64,000 nt of DNA from Limnohabitans sp. (GCF_023910625.1 NZ_JAAVVW010000002.1:294024-358023); one strand, 5' to 3'; shown: positions 27,904-45,677, numbered from the stretch's first letter. A program made the numbers and translations. The notes: generated by a model from the letters alone, not told the origin.

Positions 27904-28032
27904 GTTCATACATCACTGAGCCGAACCAATAAGTTTTGCCCCTCATGTCCTCGACCCTTATGTCTAGTGCTGAGTGGGTATAAAAGGCCTCGTCTGATGG
28001 ACAAGTTTTTGACCATGTCATACCACCGTGCC

Positions 28033-28368: not shown

Positions 28369-28393
28369 ACAAAAGTCCTTTCGTTGTGTTGTG

Positions 28394-28861: not shown

Positions 28862-29009
28862 TGACCCCGATCAAAAAAAACATCTTGAGCAGACATCGCC
28901 AAGCCGCGCACCCGTCCGCACACCCAGCTCAGATTGATCTGACTTTGGTAAATCATCGGCTGCAACATATACCCCGCCTCACAGTTATGCCTGACTCGCC
29001 CGGCCTAGG

Positions 29010-30128: not shown

Positions 30129-30714
30129 AAGTCAGTCCTTTCTTGTGCCTGCCGAAATAGCCCATGCGCTGCAGATTGTTGATGCAGTGCAAAAGTCAGG
30201 CCAGCTTTAAGGTGCCACGCACCGCTGGTCAAACTTCGCAAGATTTGGACCGGGGCGGATGACCTCTTACAGACTTGTCAGTTCCACATGGGCTGGTGCT
30301 GGGCTTGGCCTTGGCGATTCCTTCATTTTTGTCGGTTTCATTTTTCTTCACACGGCTCAACGCCTGTGCATGGCGCTTTGATTTTGTCGCAGGTTAAAGA
30401 ATTCAATGGCGGCCTGTTTGGCATATTGCCTGTGCGAGTTCTGTCTGTATTGAAGGAATAACAAATCGCCATCGCAAACCGGCAATCTGGTGCATCGCCT
30501 TGTGTGTGACCGCAAAGCCTGAGTTACGGCGTAGCAAATTTGCACAACGCGCGTAAACGAAAGTCTGCAAAACAAGAATGGCCCGCCATTGAGGTCTGTG
30601 CGCCTGACGCCGACTCGCCTTGCACAAACGGTCAACACTTTGAGCAATCAGGTCTTCGCCGGGCAATTGTCTTTTTGTGGGGCGTTTGGCGATACCAGGT
30701 GACAGGGCTGTTCG

Positions 30715-30729
30715 TGGCACACAAGTTGC
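30715..30729 (+). promoter_or_regulatory. Sigma-54 (-24/-12) promoter upstream of sctV
   Basis: TGGCAC-ACAAG-TTGC is an exact match to TGGCAC-N5-TTGC with GG-N10-GC spacing. It ends 45 nt upstream of the sctV ATG (30775). Confidence 0.75.
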
Positions 30730-30774
30730 GCTACGAATGCCACAACATGGCAAAAAACGCTCTTTGATTTCGGT

Positions 30775-32856
30775 ATGAACGCAAAAATAAGCAAAATCTT
30801 TCTGGCAGCAGGCAAGCAGGCCGACATGGCTTTTGCAGTGCTTACCCTCGCGATGGTAGGGTTGCTGGTGGTGCCATTGCCGCCTTGGCTGCTTGACATA
30901 TTGCTGGCTGTCAGCATGGTGATGGGTGTGGGCATGCTGATGTACGCGCTTTACGCGCACTCGCCAGTCATGTTGTCGGCGTTTCCGTCGGTTTTGTTGC
31001 TGTCCACCATGTTTCGTATTGCCTTGAATGTGGCCACTACCCGGCAGATTCTTTTAGCGGGCGACGCTGGCCACATCATTGAGGCCTTTGGCAGATTTGT
31101 GGTGGGCGGTAACCTGGTGGTGGGCCTGGTCGTGTTCATCATCATTGCGCTGGTGCAGCTGATTGTGGTGTCCAAAGGTGCCGAGCGTGTGGCCGAGGTG
31201 AGTGCGCGCTTTGCACTTGACGGCCTGCCCGGCAGGCAGATGAGTATTGATGCCGATGTGCGTGCGGGCTCCATGACCAGTGGCCAGGCGCAGTACGCGC
31301 GGCGCATGCTGCTGGCCGAAAGCGCCATGTTTGGCTCCATGGATGGTGCCATGAAGTTTGTCAAGGGCGACGTGATTGCCGGCATGATCATTGTGGTGAT
31401 CAATTTATTGGGTGGTATTGCCGTTGGCGTGATTTACGCAGGCATGTCCGCCGGTGCGGCTGTTGATCATTACTCTGTGCTGGCTATCGGCGATGGCTTG
31501 GTGTCACAAATACCGGGGCTTTTTGCGGCGCTGGCTGCGGGTATTTTGGTGACGCGCTCGTCCAACAGTACCGCCCCCAATCTGGGGTGGGAGATCCTTC
31601 AGCAGTTGCGTATGCAGCCCAAGGCACTGCTTGTAACTGGCGCCATTGCCACGGTCGTAGGCCTGGTGCCTGGGCTGCCAACCCTGGTCTTTATATGTCT
31701 TGGCCTTCCGCTTCTGGCCATGGGCGCATGGCTTCACAAGACCGAGCTGTCGGGCAAAGGCGGCTGGGCGGGCTTGACCACTGAAAACGCGCTGCGCGAA
31801 GGGCAGCCGTCAAAAAGGACTTTGCTGATCGATGAGCAGTCGTATGAGTTTTGTATTGTCTGCCTTGAAATACATGACGATCTCGTACTCGACTTGTCCC
31901 CTGATGTCATTGACGAAGAGCTTACCCGTTTGCGCGGGGAGCTCAAAACAAGCTTGGGTCTGCCCTACCCAGGCTTGCTGGTCAGGCAAACCGGGCAGCT
32001 TGAGCCGGGCCAATACCAGGTCACCGTGCTGGGCAACGTCTGCGCCAAGGCGGCTGCACCCAAAGGCTCCTGCTACTTCGACGGACCGGTAGCAACAATG
32101 ACCGAGCTTGGCCTTACGCCAACGGCCAACGGCCTCAACGTGACGACGGGTTGTTGGTTGTCTGCTGAAGACGCAGCGGCGGCACGTGCTGTAAAGCACA
32201 CCTTGCTTGAGCGTGAGAACGGGCTGATTCGCGTCGTCGGTGACGTGATCCACAAGCATGCCCATGTGCTGTTTGGCATTCAGGAAATGCAGCTTGTCCT
32301 GGGCCAGCATGAGGGCACCTACCCTGACCTTTGCCGGGAGGCGGTCAACACGGTGCCGCTGACGCGGATGACCAAAATCCTCAAAAGCCTGCTGCGCGAG
32401 GGTGTGTCCATCAGAGACATGCGAACCATTCTGGATGCCCTGGTATATGGTGCGCAAGAGCCGGGCGACGATTTAACTCTTGGCGAACTGGTTCGCAAGG
32501 CACTGACCTTGCAAATATGCAAAACGCTGGTCACCCCCAACAATGTTTTGCGGGCCGTCATGCTGGACCCGCTGCTTGAAGGGCAGTTTCGCGAGAGTCT
32601 GCAGCAAACGCCGCTTGGCCCGGCGCTACAGCTGCCGCCGTCTGCCGCACAGCAGTTTCAACAGGGCGTAACTCAAGCCATTGAACGCGTGGTGTCCAAG
32701 GGCTCAACCGCTCATATCAGTGTGGTAACTGCGCCTGACCTGCGTTTGCACGTAAGACGACTTCTTGAGCCCAGCCTGCCGCATATTGCCGTGCTGGCCA
32801 CAGACGAAATTGCACCTGGCGTGCGGCTTCAGTCGCTGGGTATGCTGCGCGGCTGA
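30775..32856 (+). CDS. sctV: T3SS export gate protein SctV (YscV/HrcV/InvA family)
   Basis: 693 aa. N-terminal TM domain with ...FGRFVVGGNLVVGLVVFIIIALVQLIVVSKGAERVAEVSARFALDGLPGRQMSIDAD..., near-consensus FHIPEP. Cytoplasmic C-domain present. Confidence 0.95.
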   Translation: MNAKISKIFLAAGKQADMAFAVLTLAMVGLLVVPLPPWLLDILLAVSMVMGVGMLMYALYAHSPVMLSAFPSVLLLSTMFRIALNVATTRQILLAGDAGHIIEAFGRFVVGGNLVVGLVVFIIIALVQLIVVSKGAERVAEVSARFALDGLPGRQMSIDADVRAGSMTSGQAQYARRMLLAESAMFGSMDGAMKFVKGDVIAGMIIVVINLLGGIAVGVIYAGMSAGAAVDHYSVLAIGDGLVSQIPGLFAALAAGILVTRSSNSTAPNLGWEILQQLRMQPKALLVTGAIATVVGLVPGLPTLVFICLGLPLLAMGAWLHKTELSGKGGWAGLTTENALREGQPSKRTLLIDEQSYEFCIVCLEIHDDLVLDLSPDVIDEELTRLRGELKTSLGLPYPGLLVRQTGQLEPGQYQVTVLGNVCAKAAAPKGSCYFDGPVATMTELGLTPTANGLNVTTGCWLSAEDAAAARAVKHTLLERENGLIRVVGDVIHKHAHVLFGIQEMQLVLGQHEGTYPDLCREAVNTVPLTRMTKILKSLLREGVSIRDMRTILDALVYGAQEPGDDLTLGELVRKALTLQICKTLVTPNNVLRAVMLDPLLEGQFRESLQQTPLGPALQLPPSAAQQFQQGVTQAIERVVSKGSTAHISVVTAPDLRLHVRRLLEPSLPHIAVLATDEIAPGVRLQSLGMLRG

Positions 32857-32896
32857 CCCGGCCTTGAAAAATCACATACAAACTGGTAGCCCCGAA

Positions 32897-35008
32897 ATGC
32901 GTCTTCTCTTAGCCACTCAAACTGGGCATACAGCGCTGATTGCTGCGATTGCCACACTTGCCTTAGGCAATGGGTACACCTTTGCGCAGGTGCTTAACCC
33001 GCCTGTGCAGCAAACGCCGCCGTTGCCCTCGGGCACAGCGCCAACGCCAACGCCAACGGCCCGTGCTGCAAAGACGCCCGCGCGCGAGCTTTTGCTTCAA
33101 ACCAGGCTTGGCGCAGACAAGCGCGTGGCTATCGACTCACGTGACAGCACGATTACCCAGGTATTGACCGACCTGATGGGCGATGCGGGCTTGCCGGTCA
33201 TCGTCGATGAATCGATCAAAGGCACGGTAAGCGGCCGGTTTGAAGGCACCCGGCAGCGCGTGCTGGACGACATCTGCAGGCAGCAGGCCCTGAGCTGGTA
33301 CTTTGATGGTGCGGCGCTGTACGTTACCCGTTTGAGCGCCATTGCCACCCGTATGGTCTGGATGGAAACCGAAGCCATCAACCGCTTGAGCACATTGGCG
33401 ACAGACCTTGGGCTGCTGGACGGCAGATACGTTTACAGGCCCGTGCCAACAGAGCGTTACGCCCTCATGACGGGGCCACCCCGCTACCTGCAGCGCATGC
33501 TTGACCTGGCCAAAACCGTTGGGGCACAGCCCAAGCCTGAGAGCCAGTCCATGCAGACAAAGGTTTTCAGGCTCAGGTATGCGTCCGCAGCCGACACCGT
33601 ACTCACCACGACTGGCGGACCCACCCGGGTAGAGGGGGTAGCCACTGTGGTAGGTCGCCTGGCGGGTGTTCCCATCAATGACATAAACAAGTCAGCAAGC
33701 CGGGCAGACGCCACACAGCCAGGGCGCATGGCGGGAAAACTTGGCAAAGATGCCGGCCCAGGTACAGAGCAGCTTCGGCTGGGCCTGGATAGCCTGCAAC
33801 TACCTGACCTGGACGGCGAGGATGGATCGATCCCCATGATGCCCTTGCCGATGATCGGATTGGGCAACGGGCCGTTGCCAGCCCGCACATCAGGCGCTGC
33901 CGCGAGGACAGACGCTGCCGCGAGAGCAGATGCCCAAGCGGCTGCGGAGCTGCGCGCCAACACCGGCGCACAAGCAGCTTCTGCCCGGCCTGGAGATTCC
34001 ATCGTCACAGCCGAGCCACGGCTCAATGCCGTGATCGTCAGGGCAGACCGCAGCCGCATGCCCATGTTTGAGGAGCTGATTGAGCAACTGGATGTGCCCT
34101 CGAAAATGGTGGAAATCGAAGTCGAGATTTTTGATATTGACTCGACCCGCTTGCAGGAGTTGGGCGTAGACCTGCGACTGACCGCACGCAAGATAGACAT
34201 GACTGCTGCGGGCAACACGGCGGCTACGGGCGGGGGGCTGGTGGTTTCCGCCGTGCTGGGTGGCGCAAACCTGCTATTGCAGACGCGCCTACGCGCACTC
34301 GAACAATCAGGGGAGGCCACCATTGTTTCGCGACCCCGTATTTTGACCATGGACAACGTCAAAGCGACCTTGTCCAATACCAGCGAGTTTTTTGTCAAGC
34401 TGGCAGGTGAGCGGACGACCAACCTGTTCAACGTCAACTACGGCCTACAGATGGCGGTACAACCCACAGTGCTAGGCAACCCGGACAACCCCAGCGTTCA
34501 GCTGGCCGTTCAGATCAGCGATGGCGGGGCGCTGGCCCAGCAGGTAGACAGCCTGCCCAGCGTGACACGCAACGGACTTACCACTCAGGGCATTGTTCGA
34601 TCTGGCGACAGCCTGATGATTGGGGGCTATGCAATAGAGCGAGCCTCGTCCAGCCTCAATCGTGTCCCATTTTTGTCAGACGTACCCGTTGTGGGCAGGC
34701 TCTTTAACTCCCGCACGCAGACGAACAGCCGGCGCGAACGCGTATTTTTGATCACGCCCAGGGTCATTGAGGTTGGCGCAAGCGTTTTGCCAGAAACGAC
34801 CAAAGCGTTTCCTCAGACTGGCATGCCGAATCCACCCAGCCTCTTTCCAAGCCTGAGTTTTGGCGCTGAAGCCGCGCCATCAATCAAGCTTGACACGTCC
34901 ATGACCCGCTCGCTGCGCTTGAGCGATATCGTCAATGAAGGCGCTAATCGGGGGGGCGCCTCATCAGGTAAAGCTGGGGCCAGACCGGCACCCAATTCAC
35001 CACCGTGA
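32897..35008 (+). CDS. sctC: T3SS outer-membrane secretin SctC
   Basis: Signal peptide MRLLLATQTGHTALIAAIATLALG. Secretin domain ...IVSRPRILTMDNVKATLSNTSEFFVKL... and ...VPFLSDVPVVGRLFNSRTQTNSRRERVFLITPRVI. Contains an Ala/Arg-rich low-complexity insert. Confidence 0.9.
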   Translation: MRLLLATQTGHTALIAAIATLALGNGYTFAQVLNPPVQQTPPLPSGTAPTPTPTARAAKTPARELLLQTRLGADKRVAIDSRDSTITQVLTDLMGDAGLPVIVDESIKGTVSGRFEGTRQRVLDDICRQQALSWYFDGAALYVTRLSAIATRMVWMETEAINRLSTLATDLGLLDGRYVYRPVPTERYALMTGPPRYLQRMLDLAKTVGAQPKPESQSMQTKVFRLRYASAADTVLTTTGGPTRVEGVATVVGRLAGVPINDINKSASRADATQPGRMAGKLGKDAGPGTEQLRLGLDSLQLPDLDGEDGSIPMMPLPMIGLGNGPLPARTSGAAARTDAAARADAQAAAELRANTGAQAASARPGDSIVTAEPRLNAVIVRADRSRMPMFEELIEQLDVPSKMVEIEVEIFDIDSTRLQELGVDLRLTARKIDMTAAGNTAATGGGLVVSAVLGGANLLLQTRLRALEQSGEATIVSRPRILTMDNVKATLSNTSEFFVKLAGERTTNLFNVNYGLQMAVQPTVLGNPDNPSVQLAVQISDGGALAQQVDSLPSVTRNGLTTQGIVRSGDSLMIGGYAIERASSSLNRVPFLSDVPVVGRLFNSRTQTNSRRERVFLITPRVIEVGASVLPETTKAFPQTGMPNPPSLFPSLSFGAEAAPSIKLDTSMTRSLRLSDIVNEGANRGGASSGKAGARPAPNSPP

Positions 35009-36261
35009 GCAACACCAACGTCACGCCGCCAGACCAGTCGCAGGAGCGTGCGCTTTGCGTGGTCAGAGTTCTATCGGGGCAACAAGCCGGTGCGCATGAA
35101 CCTCTGAGCCGGGGTGACAGGCTGGTCGTCGGCGGAGACCTGAGCGACGACCTGATCCTGGCGGGCGTGAAGAACGCACGCCTGCTGATACGTGTTGACC
35201 AAGAAGGCCGCTGTTTGCTCACGGCGTTACGGCCTGGCGTTACCTGCCAGGGGCAAACATGTGCGGAGGGCCATCACCTGGAGCCAGCCCTGCCCGCCTT
35301 GCTGGACTTGGACGGCATCACCCTAGGTGTTGGCCCTGAGCAGACCGACTGGCAAAACCTGCGCGCCACCTACCAGCAAGAATCAGCGAGCACGGCATCT
35401 GTGGCACCAGCACCGCAGCCTGCACCTTTGGGTATTTCAGCCACCACCATTGCGCAGGTCATGGCCATAGGCCTGCTTGCGACAGCTTTTTCCGCTGGCC
35501 TTTACTACACGCATCAAAAGGACGAATTCTCAAAAAATGAACAACTTCTGCTTGGCGAAAAAACCCGTGCCGACATCAACACCGCCTGGGCCAAGCAGGC
35601 AGGCAACGCATCACCGCTGGAGTGGAAAGCACTGGGCCCCGGCTGGGAGGTAAAGGCGATGGTGGCCTCTGGCACACAAGAAGCCCAGCTCAAAAAGTTA
35701 CTCGAGTCTTTGGGCAATGCAGTGTCGTACAAAATCTGCAATCGCCAGCAAATGGAACGTGCCTTGGCCGCTGCGCTGGCAGGCGTCAAACCCATACACC
35801 CGACCCGAGAGATAAAGATCAACTCTCAGCAATCAGACAAAACAACAAGCCTCAACATCCCTTGGGAGCTCTTCCCAAAAGTAAAGCCCGCCCTGCTGCG
35901 CCTGTCTGTCACTGACTGCGCATCAGCGGAGCTGGCCATTGAGCTGCGGGGCATGTGGTTCGCAGCCACAAGACAGCCAGCGGTTTTTAACAGTCGTCTT
36001 GTCGATTTAAATCGCAGGCTTGCCGCCCCCGATTTAAGCGACAACCACTTTGTTTTTTTACTCGCGGGAGCCAATGCAGTCAGGCAAATACGACTGGACG
36101 CCCCAGCGTCTGTGCTGGTTGGCCCGGTAGGGTTTAACAGAAGGCTTGGGCAGGGCGCAACCCTTGCAGCCCCCGAGGGGGGGGCAAAAATCATTGACAT
36201 CACGAGTGAAGGTGTCTACCTGCAATACGGCCCCTGGATTCGCCTGGAGGCGGGTGTATGA
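35005..36261 (+). CDS. sctD: T3SS inner-membrane ring protein SctD (YscD/HrpQ/EscD family)
   Basis: GTGA overlap with the sctC stop. N-terminal FHA-like segment (VVRVLSGQQAGAHEPLSRGDRLVVGGDLSDDLIL). Single TM (IAQVMAIGLLATAFSAGLYY), then a periplasmic domain. Confidence 0.75.
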   Translation: MSNTNVTPPDQSQERALCVVRVLSGQQAGAHEPLSRGDRLVVGGDLSDDLILAGVKNARLLIRVDQEGRCLLTALRPGVTCQGQTCAEGHHLEPALPALLDLDGITLGVGPEQTDWQNLRATYQQESASTASVAPAPQPAPLGISATTIAQVMAIGLLATAFSAGLYYTHQKDEFSKNEQLLLGEKTRADINTAWAKQAGNASPLEWKALGPGWEVKAMVASGTQEAQLKKLLESLGNAVSYKICNRQQMERALAAALAGVKPIHPTREIKINSQQSDKTTSLNIPWELFPKVKPALLRLSVTDCASAELAIELRGMWFAATRQPAVFNSRLVDLNRRLAAPDLSDNHFVFLLAGANAVRQIRLDAPASVLVGPVGFNRRLGQGATLAAPEGGAKIIDITSEGVYLQYGPWIRLEAGV

Positions 36262-36298
36262 AGCCGCACAAAAAGACAACGAAAACCCTCAGCCAAGC

Positions 36299-36314
36299 TG
36301 GCACGCTTCATGCT
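36299..36314 (+). promoter_or_regulatory. Sigma-54 (-24/-12) promoter upstream of the GDPH-motif protein gene
   Basis: TGGCACG-CTTC-ATGCT with GG-N10-GC spacing, about 93 nt upstream of the ATG at 36407. Confidence 0.7.
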
Positions 36315-36406
36315 GTTTGGATGCTGCCCAAGCTGATTACCCGATGAATGAAACGGTGCCAGCAAGGCAAAGGTTAAGCGCAATCAAACATTTTCTGGAG
36401 TGACCT

Positions 36407-37318
36407 ATGAGCAATGTAAAACTTGAAACACTGAGCGCTGGCAAGAAGACGCTAAGCTCGGGCGGCGTTGATTTTGAGGTGACAGCTTTCAGCGCAAGCG
36501 AGGTGGAAGCCGTGTCTGCCAGAACCGGAAACTACATGTACGCCAGGGCCGCAGATCGGGTTTTTGCCATGGCAAAAGACCTCAACAACAACGGGAAACT
36601 CGACTCGGGAGACTCCGTTATCTACAGCTTTGGGGATCCCCACTTCAATCAGGTGACGCTGACCGGCAATGAGGGATCAAGTCTTAAGGACATCGTTGCG
36701 TTCTGCGGCTATGCCACTGACTTCGATGTGCAGTCAAACTACATTCTGCACACCAAAGATGCACAGGCGTTGGTTGACACGGAGGTGCTTTCGGAAACCT
36801 ATACCATGAACGACAAAATCACCTGGGAGGTAGCTGGCGAAAATGGTCGCAAGGGTGCCATATCGTTAGATTTCAATGCCGATGGTGGCATCGACCTGGG
36901 CACCGGACAGCTGGTCACCCAACAAAGCCTTGCGGCGGACGCAAGCGGCGACGCAACGGTTGACCTGTTTTACGACCCTGACCGGTCAGGGCTTGTGTTT
37001 ACCAAGGCAGCAGATGGACGCAAGGCAGCTATAGAAGACGGGGCATTCATCAACCGGGCGGGGCAAGAGATAAACAAAAAGCTGGTCTTGGCAGCCAAGG
37101 GGGAGTTCCAAGAGTCACGCGGGGCATATTTTGGGGTTGGAAATCATGAGGGTGCTGTTGTAGAGCCAGCCACAAACGAAAAGGCAAAAAATAAGGTGAA
37201 CATGCAGCTAGAGGTGTCGCAGTTCAACAAAGAAGACCCGGACGAGGATGAGGAGGCGCAAGAAGAAGCCTTCCAATTGAACTTGAGCCTGAGCTCGAAC
37301 AAGTCAAAAGCGACCTAA
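36407..37318 (+). CDS. Candidate T3SS effector with an EF-hand-like loop and a GDPH self-cleavage-type motif
   Basis: 303 aa. DLNNNGKLDSGD (a Dx[DN]x[DN]G-type Ca loop) sits 7 aa before SFGDPHFNQ. Acidic C-tail EDPDEDEEAQEEAF. Preceded by its own sigma-54 promoter. Confidence 0.6.
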   Translation: MSNVKLETLSAGKKTLSSGGVDFEVTAFSASEVEAVSARTGNYMYARAADRVFAMAKDLNNNGKLDSGDSVIYSFGDPHFNQVTLTGNEGSSLKDIVAFCGYATDFDVQSNYILHTKDAQALVDTEVLSETYTMNDKITWEVAGENGRKGAISLDFNADGGIDLGTGQLVTQQSLAADASGDATVDLFYDPDRSGLVFTKAADGRKAAIEDGAFINRAGQEINKKLVLAAKGEFQESRGAYFGVGNHEGAVVEPATNEKAKNKVNMQLEVSQFNKEDPDEDEEAQEEAFQLNLSLSSNKSKAT

Positions 37319-37368
37319 GAACTCAACATCAACCTGAGGCAATTTGACAAATTCACCGCGCGTGAAAT

Positions 37369-37392
37369 AGACCCCCACGTAGACCCCCACGT
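37369..37392 (+). repeat. Two perfect tandem copies of the 12-bp unit TAGACCCCCACG
   Basis: AAATAGACCCCCACG TAGACCCCCACG TCAAATAG, in the intergenic region upstream of the small ORF and needle-like gene. Confidence 0.85.
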
Positions 37393-37421
37393 CAAATAGG
37401 CCAGGTTGCGAACAAGTTTAG

Positions 37422-37667
37422 GTGATGAAAAAGTTTCCCAGTCACGGCATTTTGGAGGTCACCGACATGGAGCGCAGGTTTCGTTCGGACCCGAAGAATG
37501 TCTTAAAGGAAATTTCAAAAAAACTTGGCGAGAAAATAGAGTCTGCACAAAACAGCCCTCAGGACAACCGAGGGCTAAGGCGGATAGATCTGCTTCGTCT
37601 CGCCAACCAAAGAGTCATCGCCTTATCAAAGGCTTTGAAAGCGCCAGTGTCGATTAAAAGACACTAG
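37422..37667 (+). CDS. Small basic hypothetical protein (66-81 aa)
   Basis: ORF with alternative starts (MMKKF... at 37422, MERRF... at 37467). Lys/Arg-rich and helical. No recognisable motif. Confidence 0.3.
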   Translation: MMKKFPSHGILEVTDMERRFRSDPKNVLKEISKKLGEKIESAQNSPQDNRGLRRIDLLRLANQRVIALSKALKAPVSIKRH

Positions 37668-37714
37668 CGCAGTGTTTTCAGTGTGTGTTCAACTCAACTT
37701 CTAAAGGTGTAAAT

Positions 37715-38170
37715 ATGTCTAATACTGCCCAACTATCCGCAACAACCACAGCAAACGGCACGCAACTTTTGACGAATACTGAAAGGGTGAATGGGATAGC
37801 CGTGACTCAGTACGAGTCTGTAACGCAGAACTTGCTAAATGGCGATATCGCAGTCGCAACGACTGTAGCGGCTCGCACCGCAGACGTAGCAATCAAACAA
37901 GCAAAGGATATTACTCTTGCGGCCAAAGCACGGATGGATCCGGTTTGGCAAAAAGACGCAAACGGCAACGATATGAGAGATGCAGCTGGCCAAAAAATAC
38001 CCGTGATGGATATGAAAACCAATAGACAAGTGGTTGAACAGGGCGATTTGACCAACGCCGACATCAATGACATTAACCTGTTGAACAAACAGGCCTCCAT
38101 TGCGATGGCGATGAATCAGTCATTCACTTCCTTGTTGAACAAAATTGAGCGGACGGTTGCTACCCAGTGA
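37715..38170 (+). CDS. Candidate needle/pilus-type filament protein (SctF/EspA-like), 151 aa
   Basis: Cys-free, no TM, polar N-terminus (MSNTAQLSATTTANGTQ). The C-terminal amphipathic helix ...DINLLNKQASIAMAMNQSFTSLLNKIERTVATQ resembles needle and filament C-termini. Located upstream of the chaperone-like ORF and sctI. Confidence 0.45.
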   Translation: MSNTAQLSATTTANGTQLLTNTERVNGIAVTQYESVTQNLLNGDIAVATTVAARTADVAIKQAKDITLAAKARMDPVWQKDANGNDMRDAAGQKIPVMDMKTNRQVVEQGDLTNADINDINLLNKQASIAMAMNQSFTSLLNKIERTVATQ

Positions 38171-38253
38171 TAGAAGATGGCTTTGCGAGAATTGACTTTT
38201 GTTGATTTTTGCAAGGCCGCAGTCTGAAGATCGTCGGCTGACCGGATGCATTT

Positions 38254-38649
38254 ATGCAAGAAGATGAAACCCTGCTGTCGGACTTGGCTTGCCTTTTCGC
38301 CAATATCGGGCAAGGCGGCACCAGTTTAAAAATACTGGAGGGCTTGGCTGAGTTGACGGGCAGCAAGATTTACTTTGCTTACGCAGCGCACGTTAAAAGC
38401 AGGTACTTCAAAGGCACTGCATCGGTTGGATTGAATTATCTTTTTGGCAAACTGGGGGCGCAGGTTTTTTCTGAGTACACCCTGATCATGTTGATGATTC
38501 CTTTGCTTCTGAGGGTGGCGCGGTTCAAGGCCGCGCTGGGTTGCGTAAGGGTGCTGATCAACGCGCGCAATCCAGCGCTCAGGCAAGCGGCACTGGGGCT
38601 CAATGCCTCTATCCGAGAGATGCTTCAGTCGCCCCAAGCAGTCGTCTAA
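38254..38649 (+). CDS. Hypothetical protein, possible T3SS chaperone (assigned by position only)
   Basis: 131 aa helical ORF between the filament-like gene and sctI. No motif recognised. Confidence 0.3.
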   Translation: MQEDETLLSDLACLFANIGQGGTSLKILEGLAELTGSKIYFAYAAHVKSRYFKGTASVGLNYLFGKLGAQVFSEYTLIMLMIPLLLRVARFKAALGCVRVLINARNPALRQAALGLNASIREMLQSPQAVV

Positions 38650-38710
38650 CGGTAAAAAAACGGCTTGTCTCTGCGCTGAAGGGCCAAGAGCAAGTCACTC
38701 GGAGGTATCT

Positions 38711-39103
38711 ATGTTCGATTCAATTGCCGGTGTTGCTGCCGTGGGCAATGCCGCAGGCGCGGCCGGTGCAGCGGCCAGCCCGTCCGCTGATGGTGGCCTG
38801 TCTGCTCTGCGCGGTCAAAGTGTGGATGCGGGACGCCAGGCCGACCTTGCTCGCCAAGTGAAATTGGAGGGCACAGACGAGGTGAGCATGTTGGGCCTCA
38901 ATGGCGCGCCGAGCGCCATGAACCAACCCTTGTTTGCTATCAGCTCCATCATGAACAAGCCAGACGGCCCCAACATGGAGGATATGGTGAATTTGCAACT
39001 GGGCCTGATGAACTACAGCATGTCCATGACCATCATGACCCAATCGCACAAGAAGATCAGCGAGTCCAAATCGGCGCTGATGAATGAAGGCAAGAACGCC
39101 TAG
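38711..39103 (+). CDS. sctI: T3SS inner rod protein SctI-like
   Basis: GGAGG RBS 6 nt upstream. 130 aa. Ala/Gly-rich N-terminus and C-terminal ...EDMVNLQLGLMNYSMSMTIMTQSHKKISESKSALM, like YscI/EscI/PrgJ. Immediately upstream of sctJ. Confidence 0.6.
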   Translation: MFDSIAGVAAVGNAAGAAGAAASPSADGGLSALRGQSVDAGRQADLARQVKLEGTDEVSMLGLNGAPSAMNQPLFAISSIMNKPDGPNMEDMVNLQLGLMNYSMSMTIMTQSHKKISESKSALMNEGKNA

Positions 39104-39124
39104 TGGTTTGACAAGGGCCATCCA

Positions 39125-39913
39125 GTGTCAGCCATGCGCCTTCCTTCGTGTTTTCAATGTGTACTGGCTTGCACAGTTGCATTGCTGCTTGCCGGCTGCT
39201 CCATGCAACTGCACCAGGACCTTTCTGAGCCCGAGGCCAACATGATCATCAGCGCGCTGAAGGTGTCGGGCATTGACGCCAGCAAGCAACCGATGAAAGA
39301 CAAAAAGTGGGCCGTGACGGTGGCTGAGTCTGACTTTGCGCCAGCGGTGTTGATTCTGCGTGACCACAACCTGCCACCAGCACCCTTTAACGGCTTGGGC
39401 CAGGTGTTCAAGCGCGAGGGCATGCTGGCGACACCGACCGAAGAGCGTGCCAGGTTAATGCATGCCGTGTCTGAAGAATTGATGCGAACCATCCGCTCTT
39501 TTGATGGGGTGGTTGATGCACGGGTGCATGTGGTGGTGCCATCAACCGAGGCGCTGATCGACAAGGTGCAGCCGGCGTCTGCATCCGTTCTCGTCAAGAC
39601 GCTGCCGGACTTTGAACTTAAAGACGCCGTGACAGACATCAGGGCGCTGGTGGTGAACGCGGTAGAAGGGCTGGACCCTGGCAGGGTGTCTATCGTGCTG
39701 GTGCCGGTTGATGTGCGCAGGCAACTCAAAATGGCACCGGCCACCAGCGACGCAACCCAACTTTATGCGGCGGGTTTTGCAGGCATGGCATTGACTGCCT
39801 TGCTCATAGGGCTTGCCATGCTGGTACGTAGGCGCAGGCTCAGCGCATTGAACAACCAAGGAAAAGCCGCCACCCAAGCGCCTGATGCTGCGAATGCGGT
39901 GCGGTCAGCTTGA
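39125..39913 (+). CDS. sctJ: T3SS inner-membrane ring lipoprotein SctJ (YscJ/HrcJ/EscJ)
   Basis: Lipobox LLLAGC. ...LHQDLSEPEANMIISALKVSGIDASK...FDGVVDARVHVVVP... is the YscJ/FliF-type signature. C-terminal TM. The start may be the ATG at 39134. Confidence 0.9.
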   Translation: MSAMRLPSCFQCVLACTVALLLAGCSMQLHQDLSEPEANMIISALKVSGIDASKQPMKDKKWAVTVAESDFAPAVLILRDHNLPPAPFNGLGQVFKREGMLATPTEERARLMHAVSEELMRTIRSFDGVVDARVHVVVPSTEALIDKVQPASASVLVKTLPDFELKDAVTDIRALVVNAVEGLDPGRVSIVLVPVDVRRQLKMAPATSDATQLYAAGFAGMALTALLIGLAMLVRRRRLSALNNQGKAATQAPDAANAVRSA

Positions 39914-40581
39914 CCGGCCTGAAAGGCAAAGGCATGACCCATGTAAACTCTGGCGGCGACAGGCTCATGAGCAAGGCATCTGACAATCGCCGCGCAAGGG
40001 CCAAGCGCACACTGCTTCGCCTTGCCATGGGGTGGCAGGCCGACTATGGCCAGCAGGCGGACTCTGAAGCTGTGTCGGCAGACCGACCGGTGAAACTGCT
40101 GGGGCAAAACCGGGCTGAAAGGATTCGCCTCAAGCACCAGGCACTTTCGCTTGAACTGTGTGCATTGGGCCCACCGAGCACTTTTGAGCCCGCGTGGTGG
40201 TGGGAGCCATCAAAGTTTGCAGCATTTACGGACTCTTTGGCCATCACCCTCAGAGCGCCCAGGGTACGAGGTGCCATTCGCCGGTCCAGCGTACTGCAGT
40301 TGGTCAAAGAATTGGGCAACGAGGGCTTTGAAAAAGCCCTGGCCGTGCCGGAGAGTTTTTCTTATCTGGCAGAAACATCCAGACCCGCACCGCCGGATGC
40401 CAAGGTACAACCGGCCTTGCTATTGGCCCTTTCAGCCATTCGTCGGCAAAGCCCTCTGCTGGGCGCGCGTCTGGCCACCCTGCACCTTGGCCCGCACGGG
40501 CCGGGCATGCTGCACGAAATGGTGGACATACGGGCAGCCAACCTGCTCGACACGCTCGCGGCAGAGGCGGCCTTGACCTGA
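39910..40581 (+). CDS. SctK-like sorting-platform protein (assigned mainly by position)
   Basis: About 200-223 aa soluble protein directly after sctJ, as for yscK/hrpD/orgA. No strong motif. Start ambiguous (TTG 39910, ATG 39934 or ATG 39967). Confidence 0.35.
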   Translation: MTGLKGKGMTHVNSGGDRLMSKASDNRRARAKRTLLRLAMGWQADYGQQADSEAVSADRPVKLLGQNRAERIRLKHQALSLELCALGPPSTFEPAWWWEPSKFAAFTDSLAITLRAPRVRGAIRRSSVLQLVKELGNEGFEKALAVPESFSYLAETSRPAPPDAKVQPALLLALSAIRRQSPLLGARLATLHLGPHGPGMLHEMVDIRAANLLDTLAAEAALT

Positions 40582-40635
40582 GGCGCTGGCACACATGCTG
40601 TTGCTCAACCACGACCCTCAACGCCGGAGCCAACC

Positions 40636-42156
40636 ATGAATTCTTTATTTTCGCTTTTGGGCGCTCTGTTGGCGATTGGCATGCTGGGGCTGTTGTTGGG
40701 TAGCGTCATGCCCAAGCTCAAGCACGTGTCGCAATCGCTGGCGGCCATGTGGCACCGTCCGGGCGCACGCCTGATGCTCCTGGTGATGGCCATCGGCCTG
40801 GCCGTCACAGCTTTGGCAAGTGCGCTGCGGGCCAGCGGCGTGACATTACTGGCCATACCAACTCCGCGCCTTTCTGCAGGATTAAGCATACAGGCTGAGG
40901 CTTTCACTTTACCAGTGGTGCTGCTTTATCTTGTGGTGGGGCTGACTGGCTTGTTCGTTCTGCTTTTTGCGCTACGCGCCCTTGCGATCAAAAAGCAGCT
41001 GACCCGAGTCATTGGCGCGTTGTCGCTTGCGCGGGCTGGCAGTGCGGCAGGCACGCCTGAACAGATTGGCAGCAGCTTCAGCTGGCACGTGCTCAAGGGC
41101 CCATGGCAAAACTACAGCGCCACATTGGTCGCAACCACGGCTTCGCCAAAACCAGACACGGTGTGGCGGGCGGCCATACCGTCGGGGTTTTTCTTTTCGA
41201 GAGATGCGCTGATTGACGACTGGCTCATGGACAGCTTTGGCCGTCACCTGCCGGGCATATTGACTGGCCTGGGCATTGTTGGCACCTTCGCAGGCATGCT
41301 GGAGGCCCTGAGCCAGTTTGACCCATCCACAGCAGAGTCAGCTGCACTGGGTTTGAAAGGATTGCTCTCGGGTGTTAGCCATGCGTTTGTTGCGTCAATG
41401 GGTGCTATCAGTTGCGCCATCTTTGTGACCGCGTTGTCGCGTATGGTGATTGCCCATGTCCAAAAAAATGCCGAAAAAATGACTGCCGAGCTTGACCGGC
41501 TGTATCCCGCCGGTGCCGGGGAAAGTCAAATGAGCGACCTATACGCCAATTTGAATGCCTCGCACCTGGCTGGCCGGCCTGATGAAGCGCTGACGCAGCA
41601 GCTGCTGCAACGGCTTGTAGAGCAGATGACCCAAAGCCACCATCAATCATCGCAAGCGCTTGCAGACCTTGAAAGAAAACAGCAATTTTTTGAAGAGCGC
41701 TTGCTTCACTGCATAGAAAACGCGTTTGCCAGCCTTGCTACATTGCCAAACAGCGTATTGCGCAATACGGCGCAGTCCGCAAGCCAGCCCGCCTGGCTCG
41801 GCGAAGGTGTGGACAGGGGCGGGAGTCCAGTGCCCAAAGCTTTGTCGGCGATAGGACGACCCTCAAAGCTGAGCGCTGCCAGAACATCATCTGCTGACAG
41901 TCACAACACGGGTTACAGAACCCTTGAAGACCTGTCGGCAATGGATGAAACCACTGAAACGTCAGACACACAGTCGATGCAGGGGATGGACGACTTTGAC
42001 GATTCGCATCTGCAAGCCGACTTTGAACAGCGTATTGTGTTTTCAATCAACCGCAAGCTGGACCGTGGTTTCGCGCGCATTGAAAGCAAACTTGATAACG
42101 AGTTGCGCAGAACCTTAACACCCGAAGCCATACCCGAAGCCATGGCAGAGGGCTGA
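40636..42156 (+). CDS. MotA/TolQ/ExbB-family proton-channel protein with a long C-terminal tail (ZorA-like architecture)
   Basis: 506 aa. 3 N-terminal TM segments. Channel helices LPGILTGLGIVGTFAGMLEAL and GVSHAFVASMGAISCAIFVTALS. Then about 220 aa of helical/acidic tail (…LVEQMTQSHHQSSQALADLERKQQFFEERL…). Confidence 0.7.
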   Translation: MNSLFSLLGALLAIGMLGLLLGSVMPKLKHVSQSLAAMWHRPGARLMLLVMAIGLAVTALASALRASGVTLLAIPTPRLSAGLSIQAEAFTLPVVLLYLVVGLTGLFVLLFALRALAIKKQLTRVIGALSLARAGSAAGTPEQIGSSFSWHVLKGPWQNYSATLVATTASPKPDTVWRAAIPSGFFFSRDALIDDWLMDSFGRHLPGILTGLGIVGTFAGMLEALSQFDPSTAESAALGLKGLLSGVSHAFVASMGAISCAIFVTALSRMVIAHVQKNAEKMTAELDRLYPAGAGESQMSDLYANLNASHLAGRPDEALTQQLLQRLVEQMTQSHHQSSQALADLERKQQFFEERLLHCIENAFASLATLPNSVLRNTAQSASQPAWLGEGVDRGGSPVPKALSAIGRPSKLSAARTSSADSHNTGYRTLEDLSAMDETTETSDTQSMQGMDDFDDSHLQADFEQRIVFSINRKLDRGFARIESKLDNELRRTLTPEAIPEAMAEG

Positions 42157-42179
42157 AGCGCCGCCACGAGGCAATCACA

Positions 42180-42890
42180 ATGAAAGCACATTTCTCGCAA
42201 CGCCATGCAACCGCTTCAGGAGAAGATAACCCGTTCTGGATTTCTTATTCAGACCTGATGACGGCTGCCATGATCATCTTCATGACCATCATGGCCATCA
42301 CCATGGCGCTGATTGGCAAGACGGCGCCCGCGCTTGCGGGCACTTACAGAACGCTTGCTGGCGCTGATGTGATGCGCGACATTGAGCTGGCATCCAAAAG
42401 ATATCCAGGCATTGCGGTGGACGTCAAGACCGGTGTTATCGACATCGGCGAGTTGGTTCGCTTTGGCAGAGGTCAAGCCGGCGTGAGCGCAGAGGCTGGC
42501 GCTACTTTGCGTGAATTCGTCAAAGAAGTGCTGGCGCAGCGCAATGCAACCACCAAAGCAGGACACATCAAAAACATTGTTGTCGAGGGCTATGCCGACC
42601 AGGATGGCGCCTACCTTTACAACCTGTCTCTTAGTCTGAACAGAAGCCGCAACGTGGTTTGCGCGCTTCTTGATACTTCGGCACAAACTGCGGTACTTGA
42701 CGAGGGCGATAAAAACACCCTGCGCCAACTGCTGATGGTTGGCGGATTTTCTTCAAACAGCCTCAGGGAATCCAAGGAGTCAAGTCGCCGGGTCGAAATG
42801 AAGTTTGTTTTCGCATCGGCCAACGAAGCGCCGTTGCCTGCCCGACCTGCGGCAAACCTCACAGAACTTGGCAGTTGCAACAAGGCCTAG
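42180..42890 (+). CDS. MotB/OmpA-family stator protein (plug/TM with a conserved Asp plus a peptidoglycan-binding domain)
   Basis: NPFWISYSDLMTAAMIIFM parallels E. coli MotB ...YADFMTAMMAFF (Asp32 region). The OmpA-like block is VVEGYADQDGAYLYNLSLSLNRSRNVVCALL. Confidence 0.8.
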   Translation: MKAHFSQRHATASGEDNPFWISYSDLMTAAMIIFMTIMAITMALIGKTAPALAGTYRTLAGADVMRDIELASKRYPGIAVDVKTGVIDIGELVRFGRGQAGVSAEAGATLREFVKEVLAQRNATTKAGHIKNIVVEGYADQDGAYLYNLSLSLNRSRNVVCALLDTSAQTAVLDEGDKNTLRQLLMVGGFSSNSLRESKESSRRVEMKFVFASANEAPLPARPAANLTELGSCNKA

Positions 42891-43008
42891 CGCGGCCAAC
42901 GTCGCCATGCAAGCAGCGCGCAGCCTCACAGCCTCACAGTCATTGAATGGCCCATCGACATGGATGCCGTCATCTACCAAGATGGCCGTTCTGTCTGACC
43001 CAACAGCC

Positions 43009-43584
43009 ATGAGCCGGAGCGAGACAACCAAGCGCAGGGGCGACCACCGACGCGCAGGCTTCAGGGTCGTGATTGGCAGTTTGGCCTTTTGGGCAAGCGC
43101 GTCCGTCAGTCTGGCCCAAAATCTGAACTGCGTCATGAGTGCGGCGCAGCATCATGGCGTGAATCACTGGGTTCTTTCTGGCATTCTCTGGCAAGAAAGC
43201 CGCTGGAAGGCCAATGCGGTGCGCGGCAACAGCAACGGCACAGTGGACTACGGCATCGCGCAAATCAACAGCGTACACCTGCCAGAGCTCAAAACCCACC
43301 GCATCCATGAAGACGATTTGATGGATGCCTGTGTTGGCACCTATGTTGCCGCCTGGCATCTGCGCAAGCAGATCGACAAATACGGCAACAACTGGTTTGC
43401 CGTGGGCGCCTACCACTCTGTGACGCCAGCACTCAACAGGCGGTACGCTCAAAGTGTCTGCAATGTGCTGTCGGGTTGGCAAAAAGGGGGCCGCGTGGCA
43501 ACAAAAGCCATCGACTGTGACAACATCACAACACGGCCACAGGGGGGTACAAAAGGCACCCCAGGACCACGGGCCCCGCCCTGA
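43009..43584 (+). CDS. T3SS-associated lytic transglycosylase (SLT domain; IagB/EtgA/HpaH-like)
   Basis: Signal peptide ...FRVVIGSLAFWASASVSLAQ. Catalytic LSGILWQESRWKANA. DYGIAQINS. AVGAYHS. The start could instead be 42907, 42964 or 42982. Confidence 0.85.
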   Translation: MSRSETTKRRGDHRRAGFRVVIGSLAFWASASVSLAQNLNCVMSAAQHHGVNHWVLSGILWQESRWKANAVRGNSNGTVDYGIAQINSVHLPELKTHRIHEDDLMDACVGTYVAAWHLRKQIDKYGNNWFAVGAYHSVTPALNRRYAQSVCNVLSGWQKGGRVATKAIDCDNITTRPQGGTKGTPGPRAPP

Positions 43585-43963
43585 AGGCGTTCAGGCCTTC
43601 GCCACGCCAAGCGGCTGACCGCCAAACACCGCCGCCCGCAAACGGCTCAATGCCCCATTGCATTTCTAAAGTTGAGCCCACGGACTCAGGACATCGTTAG
43701 TCGCCCCTGAGAAATTCATTTTCACGCCAGCGCCAAACGTGCGCCGATCTTGGTCCATTGGCTATCCATATGGGCGTTTTGAGCATTGGGAATGACCCTG
43801 AAAGCTGGCATTCATGCGGGTTTCAGGGGTTTGTCAGGGTCGACTCCTGATCTCCTTTTAAATCCAGCAGCTTGATCGCGTTCCGGTGGCGCGGGGAAGG
43901 ACGGGGTTCGTAGCCCGCTTACAAAAGAACAGCGCTCAGAAAAGGGAAAACCCTTAGCAAAAG

Positions 43964-43979
43964 TGGCATGGTCTATGCA
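43964..43979 (+). promoter_or_regulatory. Sigma-54 (-24/-12) promoter upstream of the 309-aa candidate effector gene
   Basis: TGGCATG-GTCT-ATGCA with GG-N10-GC spacing, about 115 nt upstream of the ATG at 44094. Confidence 0.6.
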
Positions 43980-44093: not shown

Positions 44094-45023
44094 ATGTCAA
44101 GCGCAATAACTCGTAGCTCTTCAGGGCAAGTTAAGTCGAATAACACGACTTACACGGATCAACTGAAGGATCTGCCAAAAAACACACCAAAAACACCACC
44201 AGACCTCGGTTTGCAACCCTTTTTCGGGGCTAACTGGGGTCACCCTGATTTAAAAAAATATCTTCCCTCCGTTCTAGGAGGAGCCCAAACTATACCGGGT
44301 GGGCCCACGAGCCAGGGGGGATTAGGCGTGGCTGTGTACTTTCCCCAAGCCAACACCGTTTTTGCAACTACTACTGGTAAGCCAATCGGACTAAAAAACT
44401 TAGAAAAATATGCACTGAAACCTGTGATAACCGCTACGCAAGATCCAAAAACCGGCAAGTTTTCGGTACAGATTGGGGCGGGTAATGCACATGAGATTGA
44501 TAAGTCAGGAACCTTTGTTTTTTGGAATGTACGTGTCGCTGGCGATGCTATAAACAACGCGTTAGAACGTTCCAAAACAAACGGATCGAACCCCATCGTC
44601 ATTAGCAATATAAATGCCGGACTTTTAACATCGGCTTTGTGCCCAAAAGATACCAGGAAAAACAACCCGGGCAATGCGACCGCAGGTCTTGCCGTAGGTA
44701 CGGGCTTTAGTGGATTGAAACTCGTTGCCAAAAATGGCAACCTTGAAGTTACCAATTCTAGTGGAATTAGCCTTCCTGTAGCAGCCTTCCAAGCCGGTCT
44801 TACTGCGGCGGCGGCAACGCAGACTTTTGCCAAACTCAGCGGTTGCACGGCTGAACAGAGCGTTAACGAATTCAAGCAGAATTTGCAACAGGCTTTAAAA
44901 GCCGGCCAGGACAACTTGGCAGAATTTGGCAAAGGCGCTGACCAAGTGGCGGGTGGTTTGGCGGGTCTTGTGGGTGCGTTTTTTGCTCCGTTGTTCGATA
45001 ATTGGGGGCCGAGTGGCATATAA
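44094..45023 (+). CDS. Hypothetical protein, candidate T3SS effector or secreted protein
   Basis: 309 aa in a clearly AT-richer segment. The N-terminus MSSAITRSSSGQVKSNNTTYT is polar and free of acidic residues. Gly/Asn/Thr-rich. Hydrophobic Gly-rich C-end GGLAGLVGAFFAPLF. Confidence 0.55.
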   Translation: MSSAITRSSSGQVKSNNTTYTDQLKDLPKNTPKTPPDLGLQPFFGANWGHPDLKKYLPSVLGGAQTIPGGPTSQGGLGVAVYFPQANTVFATTTGKPIGLKNLEKYALKPVITATQDPKTGKFSVQIGAGNAHEIDKSGTFVFWNVRVAGDAINNALERSKTNGSNPIVISNINAGLLTSALCPKDTRKNNPGNATAGLAVGTGFSGLKLVAKNGNLEVTNSSGISLPVAAFQAGLTAAAATQTFAKLSGCTAEQSVNEFKQNLQQALKAGQDNLAEFGKGADQVAGGLAGLVGAFFAPLFDNWGPSGI

Positions 45024-45633
45024 ACCTATCGCTCGCCTGCGTTAAGTCTTGCGCACTTGTAGCGGTCTAGCTTTCATGAATCCGGGCGACGCCCCGGATG
45101 ATGAAACAGGCTTGAGCGGGAGCTCAGACCAGCGATTTCGGTGGGCACCGAGGCACCTTTAGTTTTGACGTTGACACATCAACTGGAAGGCTTGCTATGG
45201 GCATTGCCCCCCAATCTACAGGCGCGTTGTCGGCCTGGGCGCACTGAGAGCCTGGCCCGCAATCGACGGCGTGCCAGCCGGCAGGACAGCTTTGAGGCCT
45301 TGCAGGCCGAAGAGCGCACGCCAGCACATCGCTTTTGTGGACGCGGCTGCGGGCGGGGTTACATTTTTTTGACCGCTTGTCGTGCCATGAAAAGTGAGCG
45401 GTCTTTTCTTATTCTGCGCACAGGGCGAGGGCGGTGGCCGTGTCGGTGTTTCCCGCATCGCTGCGACCCGGTCTCATTGGCAGAAAAGCACCGCCGGGCT
45501 CAAGCGCGGTGACGTGCAGGGCAGCCAGCGATTCTCAGGATGAAGACTTGATGCCGTCGGGCTCCATCTAGACGGCGCTTCGAAGCAAAAAGCAGCGCCA
45601 GCGGGCCAAACCGTGGTGTGTTGGCAAGCAAAC

Positions 45634-45677
45634 CGCCACATCAGCGCCACATCAGCGCCACATCAGCGCCACATAAG
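45634..45677. repeat. 11-bp tandem repeat (CGCCACATCAG) x3 plus one degenerate copy
   Basis: cgccacatcag cgccacatcag cgccacatcag cgccacataag, read directly from the sequence in an apparently non-coding stretch. Confidence 0.9.

Follow-up and report, generated by a model that had tools for sequence, protein, structure and literature searches.

Which regulators switch on the T3SS (type III secretion system) encoded by a gene island of Limnohabitans sp. (GCF_023910625.1, NZ_JAAVVW010000002.1:294024-358023), and do they act on its genes directly or through an intermediate? Textbook injectisomes are controlled through intermediates such as HrpL, which acts via hrp boxes, and HrpX/HrpB, ExsA/VirF, HilA/InvF, SsrB and TtsI. 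For this island a preliminary description, made from the sequence alone, proposed that three sigma-54 promoters stand directly in front of structural and candidate-effector genes and that two tandem bacterial enhancer-binding proteins (bEBPs) activate them through RpoN. We analysed the whole 64,000-nucleotide (nt) stretch of DNA (the window), in which all positions are counted and in which the island occupies about 17.5-47.6 kb. We conclude, with a probability of about 0.65, that the island is a sigma-54-dependent type III secretion regulon under direct control. This is the best reading because of the placement, density and conservation of the promoter-type sites, an RNA boundary at one of them, and the lack of any other regulator or promoter box in our scans. 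The sites differ in their support, which is good for P2 and P4 and comes from score and context for P3; P1 and P5 are plausible.

Sigma-54-type sites in the island

Both strands were scanned with a matrix that is our own approximation of the published sigma-54 consensus, YTGGCACGrNNNTTGCW. The three motifs named in the preliminary description, here P1, P2 and P3, were all located exactly where it had placed them, each with a gap of exactly 10 nt between GG and GC (Table 1). It had put the start codons 45-115 nt downstream; the measured distances from GC to ATG are 46 nt for P1 (sctV, 30775) and 94 nt for P2 (the gene for a 303-amino-acid (aa) protein, 36407), both within that range, and 116 nt for P3 (309-aa gene, 44094), just beyond it. 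A 17-nt element, GAAAACCCTYAGCMAAR, abuts the -24 element in both P2 and P3 and has no other mismatch-free copy in the window, which suggests a duplicated promoter cassette. P3 is preceded by a terminator-like hairpin at 43833-43851.

Two further strong, correctly spaced sites, both missed in the preliminary description, were found on the minus strand. P4 lies upstream of the minus-strand operon, at about 60 nt from its first gene; the operon runs from a 372-aa gene through sctU, sctL, sctQ, sctR, sctS and sctT. For this strand the description had offered only weaker candidates. Its N9-spaced site at 30199-30213 is outclassed by the N10-spaced P4, which lies just downstream on the minus strand and whose first bases it overlaps, and its candidate at 28961-28975 is not credible, since that gap holds no co-oriented match scoring at least 4. 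P5 lies about 400 nt upstream of the pair of activator genes, and its position suggests possible autoregulation of these genes. Thus by our approximate matrix all five sites, P1 to P5, carry GG and GC 10 nt apart in a TGGCAC-N5-TTGCW-like context. Between sctT and the activator genes, and hence between P5 and bEBP_A, there is a transposase-like open reading frame (ORF) fragment (21324-21716, plus strand, judged by eye); in the related locus L087 a different fragment of this type occupies the corresponding place (its positions 9400-10000).

Several other matches were set aside. The site at 43334-43351 (plus strand) lies within the SLT gene and was not found in the related locus L001, and the matrix matches at 44603 (minus), 32497 (plus) and 24169 (minus) are intragenic. 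A weak sigma-54 candidate ending at 36368, which would match an RNA contig end at 36378, has GC changed to GT in L001 and L004. Outside the island, a match at 59625-59642 (plus strand; ATGGCTTGATTTTTGCTG, score 16.0) lies 206 nt upstream of a gene for a TctC-family substrate-binding protein (59848-60894) and may be an unrelated genuine sigma-54 promoter.

Placement and density of the sites

The preliminary description asked how such matches compare with the background, and the answer depends on what is counted. The raw pattern TGGCAYN6TGC occurs 5 times in the window against 4.47 expected, which is not above chance, whereas the placement and density of matrix matches in the island are above background. 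Promoter space, defined as intergenic, co-oriented, at most 300 nt from a start and inside the island, makes up 2.5% of strand-positions, and 4 of the 15 matches scoring at least 11 fall there (binomial P = 4e-4). Matches scoring at least 14.5 have a density of 1.65 per 10 kb in the island, 0.3 in the window flanks and 0.14 in 74 other T3SS loci (1.3 Mb), so that the island is about 12 times as dense as these loci; six activator-linked T3SS loci, five of them from Desulfovibrionaceae, reach 1.06 per 10 kb. Furthermore, P1 to P5 fill the five largest promoter-type gaps, and the internal gaps of the operons are devoid of co-oriented sigma-54 sites. By placement, density and gap scan, then, an upstream and co-oriented location of the sites is more frequent than chance.

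Conservation in related loci

Relatives of the island are sparse. The sctD-like protein forms five clusters, 81-100% identical, among 5.8e9 proteins, and a scan of Joint Genome Institute (JGI) metagenomes with the SctD-like alignment returned one locus only. Against L001, which represents the 86% lineage, intergenic DNA is 68-73% identical, and the promoter elements are far better kept. P1, P2 and P4 are retained in the 81-86% relatives. At P1, TGGCA and GTTGC are unchanged in L001 though the spacer between them differs and insertions and deletions flank the site, and L005 and L087 likewise carry them unaltered. P2 has the same 17-nt core in L001, L003, L004 and L090, in an intergenic region that is 73% identical overall. 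Counterparts of P4 are TTGGCCTGATTTTTGCAA in L001 and L002, with a score of 18.4, and CTGGCCTGACTTTTGCAA in L087; that of P5 is GCGGCATGAATATTGCAT, in L087 and L088. For P3, the upstream region in L089 is 99.8% identical, and the homolog of the 309-aa protein encoded there is 71% identical.

The most informative case is a diverged paralogous module in L087, which consists of a C-terminal remnant of sctD (41% aa identity), an intergenic stretch and a gene for a 227-aa paralog of the 303-aa protein. From remnant to gene, its DNA cannot be aligned with the P2 region save for TTGGCATGATAAATGCTG, in which the exact -24/-12 spacing is retained; the P2 region can further be matched to a CTGGAGGCAGGCTTATGAAC block where the remnant ends. 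The CTGGAGGCGGGTGTATGAAG block at the sctD stop codon, kept in this module as well, is on grounds of conservation a candidate cis element. Directly downstream of P6, the sigma-54 site of the 227-aa/sctN operon in L087, the 5' leader carries a long tandem (CTCAATG)n heptamer array (L087 15880-15990), which may be either phase-variable or an artefact of assembly.

RNA boundary at P2

Lake metatranscriptomes, several of which (X25-X30 and X33) contain parts of the island, were analysed as assembled contigs. In run X25, depth is 0 over 35463-36350 and 28.8 on a 3.2-kb contig spanning 36378-39581, and in run X26 a read-length contig starts at 36351. The RNA 5' boundary thus lies between 36262, just after the sctD stop, and 36351, and brackets the predicted P2 start at 36325. 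The mapping of transcription starts that the preliminary description called for is in this way addressed at contig-level resolution and at P2 alone: the boundary fits a start near 36325, without proving it. Depth is 0-2 over sctV, sctC and sctD and 8-11 over the minus-strand operon (contigs 27000-28351 and 29703-29970), and such unevenness across island genes argues against DNA carry-over. Among the metatranscriptome contigs, none covers the 646-nt region of P4 and P1 or the 309-aa gene. The X25 contig ends exactly at 36378, 29 nt ahead of the ATG, in a junction with Illumina adapter; this could be the 5' end of a processed RNA.

The two activators and other regulators

Both activators, encoded in tandem, have a full AAA+ sigma-54 interaction domain with Walker A, a GAFTGA or NAFTGA loop and the AAA+ lid. 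By sequence, the island therefore encodes a candidate cognate enhancer-binding protein with the intact loop: this is bEBP_B, which also has a Fis-type helix-turn-helix (HTH; HTH_8, 3e-4) and an N-terminal region of about 175 aa without a Pfam match. Its nearest relatives in the PDB are NifA, NtrC1, ZraR, PspF and FleQ. In bEBP_A the loop reads NAFTGA for GAFTGA, a change kept in the 65% ortholog, and the C-terminal HTH is divergent: Pfam gave no HTH match in this protein, and the invariant AA...Y signature of the Fis-type HTH is retained. The N-terminal domain of bEBP_A is REC-like, with about 115 residues followed by a linker helix, and aligns with GlrR-type receivers; however, the acidic pair (DD to HK) and the conserved Lys of a receiver are missing. 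The AlphaFold model shows a (beta-alpha)5 fold for this domain (mean pLDDT, the predicted local distance difference test, 79 for the whole model). Outside the lineage, the nearest relatives of bEBP_A are GlrR-type response regulators at about 37% identity. The two activators are 33% identical to each other and stand in tandem in three lineages (L087, L088 and L086).

The preliminary description had reported that the island lacks an extracytoplasmic function (ECF) sigma factor of the HrpL type and an AraC/HrpX-type gene, and a Pfam scan agrees: apart from the two sigma-54 activators, no ECF sigma, Sigma70, AraC or other regulator domain was found in the ORFs picked between 17.5 and 47.6 kb, a set that omits a few ORFs just above 80 aa and all shorter ones. 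The island also has no histidine kinase gene.

Control regions and other promoter types

The minus-strand operon and sctV are separated by a divergent control region that houses P4 and P1. We regard it as non-coding because its substitutions relative to L001 lack 3-nt periodicity. Four blocks within it are perfectly conserved, at 30394-30408, 30466-30493 (an imperfect dyad), 30530-30543 (which holds the palindrome GCAAATTTGC) and 30660-30676, and are candidate activator-binding sites as judged from their conservation.

A search for upstream activator dyads shared between the promoters, as suggested in the preliminary description, gave nothing beyond the null. No dyad with arms of 5-6 nt and spacers of 0-14 nt is common to at least three promoters, the best-matching 12- and 14-mers across six upstream regions are no better than in shuffled controls, and AAATCGCCAT-type repeats are not enriched. 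The GlrR-type pattern TGTC-N10-GACA was found 25 times against 22.6 expected, in no informative place, and the IHF consensus is absent at P1 to P4, its sole occurrence being at -150 of P5. Other promoter types fared no better. No hrp, PIP or tts box stands at any operon head; one loose match to the hrp box (GGAACC-N15/16-CCACNNA) lies inside sctC, on the wrong strand. The sigma-70 consensus was found 4 times against 8.2 expected, never correctly oriented at an operon head, and Rfam gave no match in the window.

Gene content of the island

The core of an injectisome is present by Pfam, with SctV, U, R, S, T, N, Q, L, J and D and the secretin SctC, although the SctD match is weak (E = 0.003). 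The combination of secretin, sctD and sctJ identifies the machine as an injectisome; needle and rod proteins were not identified among the island ORFs. Upstream of sctU, four unannotated ORFs reach to 30128 on the minus strand. The flanks carry TctABC, TctC, TatD and RecJ genes.

Table 1. Sigma-54-type sites, regulators, T3SS genes and associated features in the window.
Feature	Position	Strand	Description
P1, sigma-54-type site	30715-30729	+	TGGCACacaagTTGC; heads sctV-sctC-sctD; predicted start ~30741; score 11.0
P2, sigma-54-type site	36299-36314	+	TGGCACGcttcATGCT; heads 303-aa gene to SLT gene; predicted start ~36325; score 14.6
P3, sigma-54-type site	43964-43979	+	TGGCATGgtctATGCA; heads strain-variable 309-aa gene; predicted start ~43990; score 16.5
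P4, sigma-54-type site	30187-30204	-	CTGGCCtgactTTTGCA; CTGGCCTGACTTTTGCAC; predicted start ~30177; score 16.1
P5, sigma-54-type site	21767-21784	-	AAGGCATGAATATTGCTA; score 15.5-15.6
Divergent control region	30129-30774	.	646 nt
CTGGAGGCGGGTGTATGAAG block	36244-36263	+	invariant in all P2 orthologs
bEBP_B, sigma-54 activator	18585-20024	-	479 aa; Pfam 5e-57
bEBP_A, sigma-54 activator	20045-21358	-	437 aa; Pfam Sigma54_activat 3.5e-57
Minus-strand T3SS operon	21952-30128	-	372-aa variable protein, small ORFs, sctU, sctL, sctQ, sctR, sctS, sctT; Pfam
sctT	21952-22836	-	Pfam
sctS	22764-23036	-	Pfam
sctR	23083-23727	-	Pfam
sctQ	23737-24906	-	Pfam
sctL/FliH-like	25429-26148	-	Pfam
sctU	26173-27204	-	Pfam
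sctV	30775-32856	+	Pfam FHIPEP 2e-190
sctC secretin	about 32894-35008	+	Pfam Secretin
sctD-like	35005-36261	+	weak Pfam YscD match
P2 operon	36407-43584	+	303-aa protein; 161-, 131- and 166-aa ORFs; sctJ; 223-aa ORF; ZorA-like; ZorB/MotB-like; SLT; Pfam, PADLOC
sctJ	39125-39913	+	Pfam
ZorA/MotA-like	40636-42156	+	506 aa; PADLOC ZorA1 6e-58, motor part only
ZorB/MotB-like	42180-42890	+	PADLOC ZorB1 9.5e-66, full length
SLT transglycosylase	42805-43584	+	Pfam
309-aa protein	44094-45023	+	Ser/Gly/Asn-rich; no family match; two homolog clusters among 5.8e9 proteins
sctN ATPase and 155-aa downstream ORF	45740-47537 (sctN 46176-47537)	-	Pfam; tatD immediately upstream

Compared with the structural genes, the first gene behind each strong promoter varies far more. 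These first genes encode the 372-aa (29010-30128, minus), 303-aa (36407-37318, plus) and 309-aa proteins. In relatives whose SctD-like protein is 86-99% identical, identity is 54% for the 372-aa protein (L001, L005), 67-93% for the 303-aa protein (from L004 to L005) and 71% for the 309-aa protein (L089). All three are rich in Ser, Gly and Asn and without a family match, and the 303-aa protein has an FGDPHF motif; such features would suit secreted substrates subject to exchange or diversifying selection. The 309-aa gene is absent from L001, L003 and L005, and its product is a candidate secreted substrate driven by P3.

Within the structural operon, a ZorA/ZorB-like proton-channel pair without ZorC or ZorD is flanked by the 223-aa ORF next after sctJ on one side and by the SLT gene on the other. 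The pair is kept in L001, L003, L005 and L089, and in 80 other T3SS loci no such pair lies within 10 kb of sctV; judged by titles and abstracts, we found no literature linking ZorA/ZorB to type III secretion.

The edges of the island are rearranged (window 45513-47651; L087 12856-18322). In L087 the activators are followed by a tetratricopeptide repeat (TPR) protein and then by a sigma-54-headed operon encoding proteins of 116, 196, 72 and 227 aa and SctN. In the window sctN stands at the opposite end of the island, after tatD, and the four genes upstream of it in L087 are missing; homology begins 26 nt upstream of sctN, right after tatD. A HipA-like gene lies at this edge in L087 and L005, paired in L087 with an HTH gene. 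At the left border a 225-aa ORF (17499-18176, minus strand) has no Pfam match, a weak PADLOC match to mad2 (2e-7) and no counterpart in the related loci.

The SctV lineage is isolated: the next-best protein among 1.84 billion representative proteins is 45% identical, and the best SctV match in GTDB species representatives is 39-41% identical among the matches listed. The island sequence is present in many lake-water metagenomes, and one activator ortholog is labelled 'MAG: Burkholderiales bacterium', for metagenome-assembled genome.

Proposed mechanism and alternative explanations

In the mechanism that we propose, RNA polymerase carrying RpoN would bind the -24/-12 promoters that head each major unit, P4, P1, P2 and P3, and the closed complex would await remodelling by the two AAA+ activators, whose genes close the minus-strand row at its distal end. 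With its GAFTGA loop and Fis-type HTH, bEBP_B is the likely DNA-binding, sigma-54-contacting subunit, and bEBP_A, with NAFTGA and a divergent HTH, is probably its partner or modulator. As the input signal, a protein partner or ligand is more probable than phosphorylation, because bEBP_A lacks the phosphorylation pocket, the N-terminal region of bEBP_B belongs to no family and the island has no kinase. P5 would supply positive feedback on the activator genes. We infer that the two island activators are the acting ones, and likewise where they bind and how they are controlled.

Several observations weigh against direct sigma-54 control. The score of P1 is the lowest of the five, and scores of about 11.0 arise 1.3 times per 10 kb in unrelated loci. 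P3 has neither informative conservation, L089 being the only other strain with the gene, nor RNA support. At P2 the X25 contig begins with adapter about 53 nt downstream of the predicted start and gives no exact one. An insertion sequence remnant sits between P5 and the activator genes, and L086 lacks P5 upstream of its 65% ortholog pair. No sigma-54 site was found here for sctN, the gap 47538-47651 being free of matrix matches scoring at least 4; in L087, sctN lies in a sigma-54-headed operon. The top match of the window, at 23035-23052 (plus strand, score 16.6), is antisense over the ribosome-binding site and start codon of sctS; it is probably fortuitous, and shows that strong chance matches do occur. 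Scans of the upstream regions gave no shared activator site, IHF site or GlrR-type site, the GAFTGA loop of bEBP_A reads NAFTGA, which may affect its activity, and rpoN was not found in the window, where the ORFs scanned (not every ORF) have no Sigma54 domain.

Could the motifs, then, be fortuitous, with the operons read from unrecognised promoters of the sigma-70 or another type and the activators serving some other target? The raw pattern count, the antisense match and the weakness of P1 would agree with this, and sigma-70 promoters of Burkholderiales frequently depart from the E. coli consensus. Yet the statistics of placement and density, the conservation in relatives and in the L087 paralog, the P2 boundary and the lack of a sigma-70 consensus at any operon head all speak for real promoters, and we consider chance motifs very unlikely. 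If the promoters are real, the island activators might still not be their direct or only activators: they could serve a subset such as P4 and P1, an activator encoded elsewhere could act, or an intermediate could hide among the small ORFs. No common upstream site ties the promoters together, the element proximal to P2 and P3 is missing from P1 and P4, the activator pair of the 65% lineage does not lie beside sctT, and about 10 island ORFs are without a family match. However, none of these family-less ORFs has an HTH or sigma domain, the pair is the sole regulator found in the island, and activators are as a rule encoded close to their sigma-54 targets (Kazakov et al. 2015, PMC4641369), so that we hold such an arrangement to be unlikely.

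A related explanation gives activation to bEBP_B alone and makes bEBP_A, with its NAFTGA loop and degenerate HTH, an inactive paralog with an inhibiting or titrating role. NAFTGA is not among the tolerated GAFTGA variants in Kazakov et al. 2015 (PMC4641369), and Pfam detects no HTH in bEBP_A. On the other hand, NAFTGA and the full AAA+ core are kept in the 65% ortholog, which argues for a selected function of bEBP_A; its HTH keeps the AA...Y signature, and the pair is always in tandem. We regard a bEBP_B-only system as quite unlikely. Direct sigma-54 control by the pair thus stays our preferred reading, and the proposal of the preliminary description is borne out in part: the sites at the unit heads, mostly conserved, and the P2 boundary support direct transcription through RpoN, whereas the role of the tandem bEBPs is inferred and no enhancer was found.

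Comparison with known systems

In Kazakov et al. 2015 (PMC4641369), sigma-54-dependent regulators are predicted to control the T3SS directly on pDV1 of Desulfovibrio vulgaris, where two divergent T3SS operons have sigma-54 promoters, the activator DVUA0100 is encoded inside one of them, and a putative effector gene has a sigma-54 promoter of its own. In D. piger, Bilophila wadsworthia and a Desulfovibrionaceae MAG (L035, L037 and L062), our matrix recovered back-to-back sigma-54 sites, and an activator is encoded within the cluster. The island resembles the DVUA0100 regulon in having a sigma-54 site at the head of each of two divergent T3SS operons, an in-cluster activator, a candidate effector with its own promoter and no intermediate; P4 and P1 lie back to back, about 510 nt apart, with the activators at the distal end of the minus row. 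In contrast, there is one activator with GVATGV in D. vulgaris and a tandem pair with NAFTGA and GAFTGA here. Only the AAA+ core of DVUA0100 aligns with the island activators (37-46% identity), in contrast to the N-terminal domains. SctV shares just 36-38% identity with that of the Desulfovibrio T3SS, which belongs to another T3SS family; the host here is a betaproteobacterium. The island is therefore an analogue of the DVUA0100 regulon and not a member of it. The DVUA0100 regulon is itself a computational prediction, and its authors found a shared activator motif, which was not found here. Thus the wiring that the preliminary description called unusual is so relative to the Hrp, Ysc and Salmonella pathogenicity island (SPI) cascades, but has a precedent in D. 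vulgaris.

HrpR and HrpS of Pseudomonas syringae (and HrpS of Erwinia, likewise acting on HrpL) are comparable as tandem paralogous sigma-54 activators in a T3SS island with RpoN dependence, which is predicted here. They lack a signal-recognition domain (Francke et al. 2011), and PMC5263251 states that HrpR/HrpS fire the hrpL promoter and that the ECF sigma HrpL then coordinates most T3SS genes. Unlike these proteins, the island activators have N-terminal domains of 130-175 aa, no hrpL or hrp box was found in the island, and the sigma-54 sites lie on structural operons. In Chlamydia trachomatis, sigma-54 promoters of the CtcB/CtcC system directly precede T3SS-related genes, with reporter support (Soules et al. 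2020, PMC7482065). CtcC, however, is a response regulator that is phosphorylated, has a cognate kinase and lacks a DNA-binding domain; the regulon it controls is genome-wide and developmental and not a dedicated circuit within the cluster.

The island is also like the flagellar hierarchies (FleQ/FlrA, FlrC, FlgR) and T6SS (type VI secretion systems) in having a dedicated AAA+ activator and sigma-54 promoters before operons for a secretion apparatus, and bEBP_B counts FleQ and FlrC among its closest relatives of known structure. Bernard et al. in 2011 reportedly described T6SS clusters with cognate sigma-54 activators. Those cases are flagellar or type VI machines, whereas here the machine is an injectisome and the activators have degenerate receivers.

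Significance

The regulatory principle has a precedent, and what is more unusual is the isolated T3SS lineage and the ZorAB-like pair in its structural operon. Tentatively, and at somewhat less than even odds, we suggest that several features come together in this island: an undescribed injectisome family of uncultured freshwater Burkholderiales, a recruited Zorya-type ZorA/ZorB proton motor, a nearly whole system wired to sigma-54 through an unphosphorylatable pseudo-receiver pair, and promoter/substrate cassettes that are duplicated and swapped between strains. The evidence is computational (sequence, comparative analysis and contig-level RNA), and the interest of the finding is accordingly moderate.

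If our reading is correct, the island would be a second, phylogenetically unrelated lineage in which sigma-54 promoters are fired directly on structural and substrate genes, and direct control by sigma-54, known from flagella and T6SS, would recur as a solution among injectisomes. Promoters of the P2/P3 type could flag further secreted substrates in uncultured lake bacteria, any gene behind such a promoter in a MAG being a candidate. Finally, the pseudo-receiver activators raise the question of which signal turns on a T3SS in planktonic freshwater bacteria.

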